From positions 638-64,637 of the forward strand of contig DIUZ01000023.1 of NCBI GenBank assembly GCA_002423205.1: a stretch of 64,000 nucleotides of DNA. The letters run 5' to 3'. Source of the stretch: Micavibrio sp. UBA6145 (GTDB lineage: Bacteria; Pseudomonadota; Alphaproteobacteria; Micavibrionales; UBA1664). The notes beneath the pieces are model-generated. The model was not told where the DNA came from. It searched no databases and was given only the letters and a program-made list of their open reading frames with translations. Positions 35,598 through 38,866 of this stretch are shown here, in pieces. A program made the position numbers and the translations under genes. The number at the start of each line of letters is the position of its first letter. Within the stretch, counting starts at the first letter, position 1.

Positions 35598-36749
35598 ATG
35601 ACTGCCGCACAGCCCCTTAAAGTACATGAAAGCCTGGACGCGTATCAGCGCCAGATCCCGTTTTTCAACTACCCGTCGCTGTTCAAACAACACGAAGAAG
35701 ATTACGTGCGCATCTTCCGCGACGTCGGCAGCCGCGGTGCCTACATCCTGCAAAAGGACCTGAGCCAGTTCGAAGAGAATTTGAAAAAATTCCTCAACGT
35801 CAAACACGTCTTCGGCACCAATGACGGCACCAACGCCATCATGATCGGTTTCATGGCCATCGGCCTGCAGCCGGGCGACGAAGTCATCTGCTCGTCCCAC
35901 ACCTACATCGCAACCGCATCGGCCGCGCAAATTCTGGGCGCGAAAGCCGTGCCGTGCGATATCGGTTACGACAACATGATGGACGCGAAAGACGTTGAGA
36001 AACGCATTACGTCGAAAACCAAGGTCATCATCCCGACGCAGTTGAACGGCCGTACCTGCAACATGGATGAGATCCAGGCGCTGGCTGACAAGCACGGCCT
36101 GATTGTCTGCGAAGACGCAGCACAGGCGCTGGGTTCGAAATTCAAGGGCCGCAATGCCGGTACCTTCGGCAAATTCGGTACATTCAGCTTTTACCCGGCC
36201 AAGGTGCTGGGCTGCTTCGGCGACGGCGGTGCAGTTGTCACCAATGACGACGAGATCGCCGCGAAACTCTATGCCCTGCGCGACCACGGCCGCGACGAAC
36301 AAGGCAATGTTGTCATGTGGGCGACCAATGCCCGCCTTGATAACCTGCAGGCCGCATGGCTCGATTTCAAACTGCAGTCGTATCCGCAGGATATTGATCG
36401 CCGCCGCGAAGTTGCGCGCATGTATCACGAAGGCCTGAAAGATGTGAAGCAGCTGACGCTGCCGCAGGGTCCGGATCAGAACCCGGATCACTTCGACATC
36501 TACCAGAACTACGAACTGGCTGCCGACCGCCGCGATGAGCTGCGCGTTTACCTGAAAGACAAAGGTATCGGTTCGATCATGCAGTGGGCCGGTACGCCGC
36601 TGCACAAGTTCGACAAACTTTATGCGCCGCAATCGATTCCGGGCGTCGAGAAATTCTTTGAACGCTGCCTGATGATTCCGATGAACGTCACGCTGACCGA
36701 CGAAGATATTCAGTACATCATCAATACGATTAAGGAATTTTACGCTTGA
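35598..36749 (+). CDS. DegT/DnrJ/EryC1/StrS-family sugar aminotransferase
   Basis: GTNDGTNAIMIG, LIVCEDAAQALGS and TFSFYPAKVLGCFGDGGAV (PLP Lys). The ATG at 35598 is preceded by AGGAG. Confidence 0.85.
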   Translation: MTAAQPLKVHESLDAYQRQIPFFNYPSLFKQHEEDYVRIFRDVGSRGAYILQKDLSQFEENLKKFLNVKHVFGTNDGTNAIMIGFMAIGLQPGDEVICSSHTYIATASAAQILGAKAVPCDIGYDNMMDAKDVEKRITSKTKVIIPTQLNGRTCNMDEIQALADKHGLIVCEDAAQALGSKFKGRNAGTFGKFGTFSFYPAKVLGCFGDGGAVVTNDDEIAAKLYALRDHGRDEQGNVVMWATNARLDNLQAAWLDFKLQSYPQDIDRRREVARMYHEGLKDVKQLTLPQGPDQNPDHFDIYQNYELAADRRDELRVYLKDKGIGSIMQWAGTPLHKFDKLYAPQSIPGVEKFFERCLMIPMNVTLTDEDIQYIINTIKEFYA

Positions 36750-38866
36750 GCACAAAAGCCGCCCGCGCCCAGAACGCCTTTTACACCGTACCCGGACAGG
36801 GTTGGACGTCAGACCTGAAAGATCTGGCTGATCCCACCTGTTTCACCGCGGCGATCGACCTTAAGAACGTCGCGACGGATACGCTGGTCAAGGCGCTCCA
36901 TGACATGACACTGATCCGCGTTGCGGAAGAAGTGATCGCAGACATGGTGGTTGCAGGCGACATTAAATGCCCGACCCACCTGGCCATCGGCCAAGAAGCG
37001 GCGAGCGTTGGCGTGGCTGCGCATTTACGCGCTACCGACCGGGCCTTCGGCTGCCACCGTAGTCACAGCCATTATCTGGCCATGGGCGCGCCGGTCAAAG
37101 AACTGATCGCGGAAACGCTGGGTAAAGTCACCGGCTGTTCCAAGGGCTTCGGCGGGTCCATGCACCTGTTCGCCAAGGAATTCGGTTTCTACGGGTCCGT
37201 CCCCATCGTCGCTGGCACCATTCCGCTGGCCGTTGGCGCAGCGATGGCTGCGAAAATGGACAACAAAGACTCCCTTGATGTCGGCGTTGCGTATTTCGGC
37301 GACGGCGCGTGCGAGGAAGGCGTGTTCCATGAATGCCTGAACATAGCTGCCAGCTTCAAACTGCCGATGATCTTCGTGGTTGAGAATAATCTGTTCTCAA
37401 GCCATCTCGACATCCACCTGCGCCAGCCGTCGGATAAAATCGCGCGTTTCGCAGAGGCTGCCAAAATCAACCACGCCACCGTGGACGGCAACGATGTCGT
37501 CGCGGTGATGGAAGCCGCCGGCGACCTGATCGGCAAAGCCCGCCGCGGCGAAGGCCCGGCACTGATCGAATGCGTTACCTATCGCTGGCGCGGTCACGTC
37601 GGCCCGGATGAAAACATCGATGTCGGCGTGCGCCGTACGGCGGCTGAAGTCGCCGCATGGAAAAAGCGCGATCCGATTGGCCGTCTTCTGCAATCGCTGG
37701 AAGCCCGCGGTTACACGCGTGCGCAGTACGAAGAACTGGAAGCCGGTATCCGCAAGCAGATCATAGCGGACGGCGAGCAAAGCAAAAAAGACCCGTGGCC
37801 TGACAACAGCATGCTGCTCGGTACGGTTTACGCCGCGCCGAAAAAAACCGACACAAAACCGGTTGCCGTCACGCCGACCAAGACTATGAATTACGGCGAA
37901 GCCATCCGCGCCGGTCATGAATACCTGCTGGAACACCACAAGGACGTCTTCGTCTTTGGTCAGGGTGTCTGGAGCCCGTGGTATGTCGGCAATTCCATGA
38001 CCGATTTGGATAAACAATTCGGCCGTGACCGCGTGATCGACACGCCGGTTTCGGAAGCTGCCGCCACTGGCGCCGCCGTTGGCGCGTCTCTGGCCGGTTA
38101 CCGTCCGATTGTCATTCACCCGCGCATCGACTTCATGATTCTGGCGACGGACGCCATTACCAACCAGGCCGCGAAATGGGCGCATATGCTGGGCGGTCAG
38201 GACCGCGCGAAAGTCACCATTCGCGGTATCATCAACCGCGGCGGCGAACAGGGCGCACAACACAGCCAGGCGCTGCATTCATGGTTCGCCCATTTGCCGG
38301 GCCTGCGCGTTGTCATGCCGGCCACCGTGGCCGATGCCCGTGACCTGTTCATCGCGTCCGTATTGTCTGACGACCCGGTCCTGTTTATCGACGACCGCTG
38401 GTGCTACGACCAGAAAGACGACCTGCCCCCGGCCCGCGACATCGACCTGACGACGATCAAACCCGCCGTGCGCCGCGAAGGCACCGACATCACGCTGGTG
38501 GCCGCATCCTATTCGGTGGTGCAGTCGCTTGAAGCCGCGCAGAAACTCGAGACAATGGGCATTTCGGCGGAGGTCATCGACCTTCGTACCATCAACCCGA
38601 TCGACCACAGCGTGGCCGTGCAGTCCGTCACCAAGACCGGCCGCCTTCTGGCTGTCGACGGTGGCTGGAGCAATTGCGGCCTTGCCGGTGAAATCATCGC
38701 CGGCGTGACCGAGCGCGTAGCCTTTGGCACATTAAAAGCCATGCCTGGCCGCGTCACCCTAACCGATGCCCCGGCACCGACGTCGCGCCCGCTGGAGAAA
38801 ATCTACTACACATCGGCGGATGATATCGCCGCGCGTGCGGTTGCCATGGTCAAGGGCCGCGCCTAA
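36746..38866 (+). CDS. fused alpha/beta E1-type thiamine-diphosphate-dependent 2-oxoacid dehydrogenase component
   Basis: The alpha part has [12 protein letters not shown] and the TPP motif [33 protein letters not shown]. The beta part has VFVFGQGV...[25 protein letters not shown] and a transketolase-C-like tail. The candidate TTG start overlaps the DegT stop, so the start is uncertain. Confidence 0.8.
   Translation: [706 protein letters not shown]

Follow-up and report, generated by a model that had tools for sequence, protein, structure and literature searches.

The closest described relatives of the system reported here belong to actinomycete antibiotic pathways, in which genetic work implicates pairs of E1-like proteins in adding a two-carbon branch to a sugar. 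Pau11 (325 amino acids) and Pau12 (345 amino acids) are homologues of AviB1 and AviB2; inactivation of pau11, the E1-alpha gene, abolishes the production of both paulomycin and paulomenol, and complementation restores it (PMC4425429). The equivalent proteins Plm8 and Plm9 are credited with adding a two-carbon chain, derived from pyruvate, to 4-keto deoxysugars at C4 (PMC4802897), and the aldo-keto reductase (AKR) Pau7 reduces the C-4' acetyl branch of paulomycin to a hydroxyethyl group in vitro (PMC4753412). Gram-negative bacteria were said in 2016 to use the unrelated flavoprotein YerE rather than an E1-type system (PMC4753412), and a 2022 study of branched sugars in lipopolysaccharide (LPS) covers YerE-type enzymes only, and notes that reductases, transaminases or oxygenases modify acetyl branches further (PMC9306805). 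Here we analyse a 706-amino-acid E1 protein encoded in a surface-glycan locus of Micavibrio sp. UBA6145, within a 64,000-nucleotide stretch of contig DIUZ01000023.1 (referred to here as the window). We regard it, with moderate confidence, as a thiamine diphosphate (ThDP) carboligase that acts on a sugar intermediate and not as the E1 of a 2-oxoacid dehydrogenase complex. A literature search, partial in its coverage, found no description of E1-type genes in LPS, O-antigen or capsule loci.

The E1 protein and its gene

Three Pfam domains make up the protein, namely E1_dh at residues 54–352 (E = 2e-59), Transket_pyr at residues 380–549 (E = 8e-22) and Transketolase_C at residues 575–694 (E = 2e-28). 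The ThDP motif (GDG...NN) is intact at residues 185–215, nucleotides 37298–37390 of the window. The gene and its two parts are located as follows.

36746..38866, + strand: fused E1-alpha/E1-beta ThDP enzyme of 706 amino acids, a proposed sugar C-branching carboligase (Pfam, clade membership)
36905..37801, + strand: alpha (PP) part, residues 54–352, with the ThDP motif and H284 (Pfam, alignment)
37883..38827, + strand: beta part, with the pyrimidine-binding domain (residues 380–549) and the C-terminal domain (residues 575–694); includes E437, H506, R498, Q502 and K664 (Pfam, alignment)

The gene stands towards the end of a glycan operon of co-directional genes, and its reading frame opens within the stop codon of the preceding gene, which encodes a DegT-family pyridoxal-phosphate (PLP) aminotransferase (referred to here as DegT#2). 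The TTG start overlaps the TGA stop of this DegT open reading frame (ORF; 35556..36749) (GCTTGAGC), and an AAGGA Shine–Dalgarno sequence is found about 10 nt 5' of the TTG. Ahead of M54, the first conserved residue, there is no ATG or other start besides the TTG; because M54, the next possible start, already falls within the conserved domain, the coupled TTG start is credible. We searched the whole window for E2, E3 and LipA (an E2 hidden Markov model (HMM), regular expressions for DHRxxDG and for E3, and phmmer with rhizobial E2, LpdA and LipA) and found none; the sole other E1 is of the SucA type (3378..6656, − strand). An earlier sequence-only reading of this DNA had reported the fused chain with its intact ThDP motif, the overlap with the DegT stop, a phosphoglycosyl transferase (PGT) upstream and an O-antigen-ligase-type protein downstream, and a sucA as the only other E1 with no lipoyl-E2 or E3 gene near, and each of these observations was borne out.

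A clade of E1 proteins in sugar loci

To place the protein among its relatives, we carried out a census of 90 E1 loci, which combines 80 loci from GTDB genomes (the best-scoring 80 of more than 600 pattern matches, with one genome per GTDB species) with loci from metagenome contigs. Neighbour HMMs were built from the Pfam-labelled neighbours of the first homologues, and all six-frame ORFs of 92 loci were scanned with them. For split loci, the alpha and beta sequences were joined end to end before a neighbour-joining tree was built from the 90 E1 sequences; the tree falls into two clades of 41 and 49 loci, a bipartition found in 100 of 100 bootstrap replicates. The clade of 41, which includes the window and is referred to here as the sugar clade, has no E2 within 10 kb in any locus (0/41) and a sugar-pathway marker within 5 kb in 38 of them. 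The sister clade, in contrast, has a lipoyl-E2 gene directly downstream, within 1.5 kb, in 42 of 49 loci, and a sugar-pathway marker within 5 kb in only 4 of 49; six of its seven loci that lack E2 carry less than 2.5 kb of downstream flank. Rhizobial-plasmid queries for E2, LpdA and LipA matched 43, 1 and 1 loci, respectively, none of which is in the sugar clade.

The association with glycan genes extends from near neighbours to distant relatives. All ten contigs with homologues at 78–39% identity are glycan or sugar-nucleotide loci. The homologues at 74–78% identity share a chromosomal slot, between glucokinase and ftsH-tilS-cpoB-pal, and keep the pair of E1 and Wzy_C (census loci L001, L002 and L003), the remainder of the locus varying in the manner of a serotype locus. 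Homologues at 59–39% identity are on unrelated contigs, where E1 recurs together with a small PGT, with DegT proteins (one or two), with a methyltransferase and with a PglF-type dehydratase (CoA_binding_3 + Polysacc_synt_2). The module of E1, DegT, methyltransferase and PGT is widespread, with members in Gemmatimonadota, Nitrospirota, SAR86, Prochlorococcus, uncultured Proteobacteria and others. The sequence-only reading had proposed an orphan E1 in a glycan pathway that might place a two-carbon branch on a keto-sugar, and had suggested a neighbourhood census; the census supports this proposal, as homologues down to about 39% identity adjoin DegT, PGT, dehydratase and Wzx/Wzy genes and close homologues do not sit beside E2 or E3 genes. 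In contrast, a 685-amino-acid fused homologue (39% identity) has a lipoyl-E2 directly downstream. In a plasmid collection, tblastn returned no match above 42% identity, and the two best matches examined (about 40% identity) are E1–E2 operons, accompanied by LpdA and LipA in Rm41.

The sugar clade takes in two Streptomyces loci (L030 and L031) in 100 of 100 neighbour-joining replicates. L030 encodes a class-II DAHP synthase, an isochorismatase, a chorismate-binding/GATase (ADIC-synthase-like) protein, an FAD monooxygenase and a P450-like protein, together with an EryCIII-like glycosyltransferase, E1-alpha, an E1-beta of 345 amino acids and a dTDP-4-dehydrorhamnose 3,5-epimerase; this gene content is that of the paulomycin cluster. 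The sequence-only reading, which knew of no biochemical function assigned to E1-like genes of LPS loci, needs correction in that E1-like proteins with a sugar function are on record: AviB1/AviB2 and Pau11/Pau12 are genetically implicated in pyruvate-derived two-carbon branching (PMC4425429, PMC4802897, PMC4753412). Like these pairs, the window E1 is found among sugar genes and has no E2 or E3 partner, and the AKR partner Pau7 is paralleled by AKRs in four loci related to the window. The window E1 differs from them in being one fused chain, in its Wzx/Wzy surface-glycan locus and Gram-negative-type genome, and in its partners, which are PGT, DegT and, in relatives, a UDP-GlcNAc-type PglF dehydratase instead of dTDP-deoxysugar genes. 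Its identity to the L030 proteins is only 39–41%, and its branch carbonyl would probably be aminated and not, as in paulomycin, reduced.

These distributions also bear on the reading that the protein is the conventional E1 of a pyruvate, branched-chain or acetoin dehydrogenase complex, with E2 and E3 encoded elsewhere and a chance landing in a glycan locus. E1-alpha and E1-beta of pyruvate dehydrogenase (PDH) are the closest solved structures and NCBIfam models, and the residues for decarboxylation and lipoyl reduction are all present. However, the placement is kept across phyla with the E2 distribution given above, the window gene is translationally coupled to DegT, and the protein scores well below the NCBIfam equivalog cut-offs for PDH E1-alpha and E1-beta (279 versus 394 bits and 254 versus 454 bits, respectively). 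No NCBIfam model claims it. In addition, its charge is reversed at a position (664; see below) at which 48 of 49 E2-linked enzymes have D or E. The census contradicts this reading, and we consider a conventional E1 extremely unlikely.

Predicted structure and clade-specific residues

The AlphaFold2 model of the protein (pLDDT 89.7, pTM 0.91) has predicted disorder restricted to residues 1–16 and a dip in confidence at the alpha–beta linker. Its beta half superposes with PDH E1-beta at TM 0.93–0.95 (Foldseek). The Foldseek search returned only E1 proteins of PDH and the branched-chain 2-oxoacid dehydrogenase complex (BCKDH), and transketolases, with no sugar-branching E1 among the matches; to our knowledge, no structure of a sugar-branching E1 has been solved.

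In its fold, its ThDP motif and its residues equivalent to alpha-His263/271, beta-Glu59 and beta-His128, the protein resembles the heterotetrameric E1 of the PDH, BCKDH and acetoin dehydrogenase complexes. H284 aligns with human E1-alpha His263 (YRxxGH motif), E437 with beta-Glu59 and H506 with beta-His128, and all three are invariant in the homologue alignment. The roles of the three human residues in PDH E1 (E1p) catalysis have been described (PMC2663715), and the aligned residues are compatible with both decarboxylation and protonation of an acceptor carbonyl.

Features that set the window protein apart from the E1 of PDH, BCKDH and acetoin complexes are, besides the absence of nearby E2, E3 and LipA in 41/41 members of its clade and its scores below the NCBIfam cut-offs, an insertion after H284 and residues R498, Q502 and K664. 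Strict-identity comparison of residues between the two clades yielded almost nothing discriminating; after regrouping by residue class, 12 columns separate the clades. R498, in the loop just before H506, is invariant in the sugar clade (41/41), and E2-linked enzymes have I or A at this position; Q502 is in the same loop. The insertion, of two residues, falls in the loop that corresponds to the regulatory/active-site loop of PDH E1-alpha. Position 664, in the beta C-terminal domain, is K or R in 35 of 41 sugar-clade proteins and D or E in 48 of 49 E2-linked proteins, and K664 aligns with Glu285 of G. stearothermophilus E1-beta.

Weak similarities to other ThDP enzymes raise the alternative of a lyase or a transketolase- or DXS-like enzyme, which would cleave or extend a sugar chain or supply DegT with a small aldehyde for amination into a non-sugar substituent. 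Against Pfam cut-offs of 22 and 21.2 bits, Transketolase_N reaches 22.1 bits, over a partial stretch only, and DXP_synthase_N 20.0 bits; the full-length predicted fold matches transketolases at TM of about 0.6; and heptose genes and radical-SAM enzymes are found beside some distant members of the clade. The NCBIfam transketolase and dxs models, however, score 25–81 bits against cut-offs of 395–682, the substrates of DegT-family enzymes are mostly sugar or cyclitol ketones, and the clade offers no precedent for such an activity, so that we consider this alternative very improbable. The TPP_enzyme_N/M/C architecture (YerE-type, acetolactate-synthase-like) is absent from the protein, for which Pfam gives the E1_dh architecture only.

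A conserved module around E1

The operon encodes, in order, a 458-amino-acid protein, Wzy_C, Wzx-like, GT4, DegT#1, Methyltransf_11, PGT, DegT#2, E1 and Wzy_C proteins; ftsH, tilS, cpoB and pal come after it on the opposite strand. The genes other than E1 are listed below.

27422..32789 (part of operon), + strand: unknown 458-amino-acid protein, which opens the glycan operon (ORF)
28773–30104, + strand: Wzy_C polymerase-like protein (Pfam)
30067–31530, + strand: Wzx-like flippase (Pfam)
31527–32789, + strand: GT4 glycosyltransferase (Pfam)
32786..33904, + strand: DegT#1, second DegT-like PLP protein, N-terminally short (Pfam)
33793..34680, + strand: S-adenosylmethionine (SAM)-dependent methyltransferase (Methyltransf_11), a member of the conserved module (Pfam)
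34693..35433, + strand: small monotopic PGT (Bac_transf), 246 amino acids (Pfam, 1e-52)
35556..36749, + strand: DegT#2, DegT-family PLP aminotransferase, translationally coupled to E1 (Pfam, 1e-89)
38891..40114, + strand: Wzy_C protein, O-antigen ligase or O-oligosaccharyltransferase-like, adjoining E1 (Pfam, NCBIfam)

Within the sugar clade, a subclade of 26 loci that includes the window (type A; 100/100 bootstrap) shares several of these genes. PGT orthologues (43–83% identity) are within 2 kb of E1 in 19 of the 26 loci, DegT#2 orthologues (48–78% identity) are present in 14, nearly all of them adjoining E1, and orthologues of the window methyltransferase (31–38% identity) in nine loci of the DegT variant. 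A PglF-type dehydratase gene adjoins E1 in L004, L006, L032 and L033 and is within 1.3 kb of it in L026, L029 and L085; more broadly, a dehydratase-like gene is found within 10 kb in 29/41 sugar-clade and 17/26 type-A loci. In L001, L023, L034 and L090, mutually related AKRs are encoded next to PGT, and in three of these (L001, L034 and L090) there is no DegT within 10 kb. The AKR-variant loci carry another methyltransferase than that of the window.

This exchange of DegT for AKR, with E1 and PGT constant, suggests that the carbonyl left by E1 undergoes either amination or reduction, by analogy with the logic of YerE/YerF and of Pau11-12/Pau7. It also bears on an alternative in which DegT#2 makes a 4-amino sugar, as PglE does, and E1 supplies an acyl-ThDP or aldehyde derived from a 2-oxo acid, yielding an unusual N-acyl or N-alkyl group in place of PglD-type acetylation, with the substituent finished by the methyltransferase. 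The tight coupling of DegT and E1 would fit such a role, as would the odd N-acyl groups borne by many 4-amino-4,6-dideoxy sugars; in addition, no homologue of a hexapeptide (PglD-type) acetyltransferase was found in nearly all type-A loci, in a single-sequence search of limited sensitivity. However, acyl transfer from hydroxyethyl-ThDP requires an oxidant (lipoamide or FAD), none of which is encoded nearby, and E1, PGT and a methyltransferase persist in the three loci in which AKR replaces DegT and no amine is expected, so that a role of E1 in building a substituent for a DegT-made amine is disfavoured. PglF and E1 also occur without DegT in L006 and L032, and C-branching is what the only genetically studied relatives in the clade perform.

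DegT#2 itself is closer to DesV, QdtB and WbpE (200–220 bits) than to PglE (92 bits) or PseC (106 bits), and its closest solved structures are 7b0d, DesV, QdtB and WbpE, not PglE or PseC; we therefore do not regard it as a standard UDP-4-keto-6-deoxy-GlcNAc 4-aminotransferase. On these grounds we consider N-acylation or N-alkylation of a 4-amino sugar unlikely, and the acyl or amino-acyl substituent that the sequence-only reading had offered as a further role for E1 is less well supported, given that E1 is also present where a reductase takes the place of the aminotransferase.

DegT#1 was considered as a member of the module and rejected, as none of the 40 related sugar-clade loci holds an orthologue and the protein is specific to this locus. 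It lacks about 45 N-terminal residues and keeps the Lys of the SFxxGK motif, and only its large domain matches known DegT enzymes.

A proposed route to a branched sugar

For the favoured reading, that of a sugar-directed carboligase, we infer a pathway in which the carboligation, the donor, the acceptor and C4 branch position, the sequence of events and the groups on which DegT#2 and the methyltransferase act would be as follows. A 4,6-dehydratase, of the PglF type in many relatives and presumably encoded outside the window, would produce UDP-2-acetamido-2,6-dideoxy-hexos-4-ulose. E1 would decarboxylate a 2-oxo acid, most likely pyruvate, to hydroxyethylidene-ThDP and would add the carbanion to the ring ketone of the sugar, most likely at C4, instead of passing it to lipoyl-E2, giving a C-acetyl tertiary alcohol. 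The coupled DegT#2 would then convert the side-chain carbonyl to an amine (in sister loci, AKR would convert it to a hydroxyethyl group), and the methyltransferase would methylate the product. The co-evolving small PGT would load the sugar(-1-phosphate) onto undecaprenyl phosphate, where it would become the first residue of a glycan of the Wzx/Wzy type, which the Wzx, Wzy and ligase-like proteins would finish. The E1, DegT, methyltransferase and PGT module may thus make an undescribed sugar, which we tentatively draw as a 2-acetamido-2,6-dideoxyhexose with a C-(1-aminoethyl) or N-methylated branch, as the first residue, linked to lipid, of a surface glycan; we hold this particular structure to be possible but doubtful.

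The scheme has parallels in two known systems. Like the pathways of YerE, ErwE and MyGE (yersiniose and erwiniose), it would involve ThDP-dependent acyl-anion addition to a keto-sugar nucleotide, followed by processing of the branch carbonyl, in a surface-polysaccharide setting. Unlike the YerE type (TPP_enzyme_N/M/C, with YerE a flavoprotein), the window enzyme has the E1_dh + Transket_pyr + Transketolase_C architecture and belongs to an unrelated family. The Pgl bacillosamine pathway (PglF, PglE, PglD and PglC) likewise proceeds from a dehydratase through modification to a small PGT that starts the glycan, and the dehydratase of the relatives is PglF-type. In contrast to that pathway, the module has E1 and a methyltransferase instead of a PglD-type acetyltransferase, and DegT#2 is not a close relative of PglE or PseC. 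The PGT of the window is equally distant from the solved structures of WbaP and PglC, a comparison that does not tell the two PGT types apart.

A C-branching carboligase might also use another donor, such as a longer or functionalized 2-oxo acid (compare ErwE and MyGE), or another acceptor, such as a 3-keto sugar (for example, the product of WbpB) or a lipid-linked sugar after transfer. YerE-family LPS enzymes use C4–C8 donors (PMC9306805), and branching after glycosyl transfer has been proposed for Pau11/12 and AviB1/B2 (PMC4425429). The NCBIfam models that match the methyltransferase best are those of carboxyl and fatty-acid O-methyltransferases, C3 aminotransferases are the nearest to DegT#2, and the 3-keto intermediate of a WbpA/WbpB/WbpE-type UDP-sugar cluster at 50.6–54.9 kb of the window could be an alternative acceptor for E1. 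Against other acceptors, a PglF-type 4,6-dehydratase is the commonest immediate neighbour of E1 and the co-evolving PGT argues for a sugar completed at the nucleotide level; against other donors, the closest family is the pyruvate-specific E1. We consider a different donor or acceptor rather unlikely.

We acknowledge several points that weigh against a sugar-branching carboligase in this locus. The acceptor keto-sugar lacks a local source, as no 4,6-dehydratase was detected in the 64-kb window or in the syntenic L003, and DegT#2, if it acted as a ring-carbonyl aminotransferase, could remove the very ketone that E1 needs. The genome loci of the census are not a random sample, the trees were built by neighbour-joining only, and the members of the clade in surface-glycan loci are candidate branching enzymes, known from genes and sequence. 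Furthermore, position 664 is only a putative E2-binding position, by reference to the interface that G. stearothermophilus E1 forms with PSBD (peripheral subunit-binding domain). L030 is equated with the paulomycin cluster by its gene content and not by sequence identity to Pau11/12, and the evidence for AviB1/B2 and Pau11/12 is genetic, their mechanism being described as unknown (PMC4425429).

Fusion of alpha and beta

The fused state, which the sequence-only reading had treated as significant, was rejected as the key trait of this enzyme. Alpha and beta are split in 37 of the 90 loci, and most sugar-clade loci from genomes are two-gene pairs, with a normal stop and then, a few codons on and often without a change of frame, an ATG. 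Fusion appears on several separate branches of the tree, and among the sampled E2-linked enzymes most are fused. At the alpha/beta junctions (L008–L022, L030, L031 and L053), 22 of the 37 split loci have the alpha stop and the beta start in one frame, with one stop and 1–20 codons between them, and the loss of a single stop would therefore yield the fused form seen in the window. Because one such loss suffices, we regard fusion as incidental and not as a marker of function. Recoding of the in-frame stop was also considered and rejected, as every beta has its own ATG a few codons past the stop.

Other clade members and the rest of the window

Some distant sugar-clade loci have other arrangements. 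In L088 (8869–16781) and L089 (4919–16734), the order is short-chain dehydrogenase/reductase (SDR), fused E1, DegT, DegT, an unknown protein of 400 amino acids and a radical SAM/SPASM protein; in L089, GDP-heptose-type genes (SIS, PfkB kinase, HAD phosphatase and nucleotidyltransferase) precede it. This arrangement suggests C-branching of a heptose-derived sugar. In L015, L016 and L018 (at about 10000–12000 in L016 and L018), from Nitrospirota and Desulfuromonadaceae, two radical-SAM genes bracket a split E1-alpha/beta pair, and there are few other sugar markers.

The glycan locus of the window holds two Wzy_C proteins, and the one that adjoins E1 weakly matches the O-glycosylation ligase, TfpM and RfaL models of NCBIfam; the glycan could therefore be attached to proteins, instead of or besides lipid A-core. 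Outside the main operon, upstream of the glucokinase gene (21338–25956), are genes for a YjbH-like exopolysaccharide protein, a further GT4 glycosyltransferase and a metallophosphoesterase. A second sugar-nucleotide cluster (50642–54862, + strand) encodes a WbpA-like UDP-sugar 6-dehydrogenase, a WbpB-like GFO/IDH/MocA oxidoreductase, a 232-amino-acid Formyl_trans_N protein and a WbpE-like DegT, and its product is probably a 2-acetamido-3-formamido-2,3-dideoxy-uronic acid. The other E1 of the window is a SucA/KGD-type 2-oxoglutarate dehydrogenase E1 (3378–6656, − strand, 1092 amino acids), which adjoins neither sucB nor lpd and may represent a stand-alone or actinobacterial-style KGD arrangement; the gene downstream of it (2323–3273) is of the DHDPS family.

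Implications

In the literature searched, the breadth of E1 proteins in surface-glycan loci of Gram-negative bacteria and other phyla appears to be undescribed, as do their coupling to PGT and a PglF/UDP-HexNAc pathway, the amination that the branch probably undergoes and the single-chain form. If the assignment is correct, many genes that are automatically annotated as 'pyruvate/2-oxoisovalerate dehydrogenase E1' would be sugar-tailoring carboligases, which could be told from true complex E1 proteins by clade membership, the invariant Arg 498, K or R instead of D or E at position 664, and no adjacent E2. The fused single chain would be a convenient protein for a first in vitro reconstitution of E1-type branching and would provide a new ThDP biocatalyst scaffold for the formation of tertiary alcohols. 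New branched amino sugars would be predicted at the reducing end of O-antigen-like or protein-linked glycans and, should the aminoethyl-branched structure hold, these would form a new class of cationic, quaternary-carbon sugars. The window enzyme would then stand as the first sugar carboligase of the E1 type (non-YerE) in cell-envelope biosynthesis. If the assignment itself holds, E1-type C-branching would extend from Streptomyces antibiotics to the surface glycans of many phyla.

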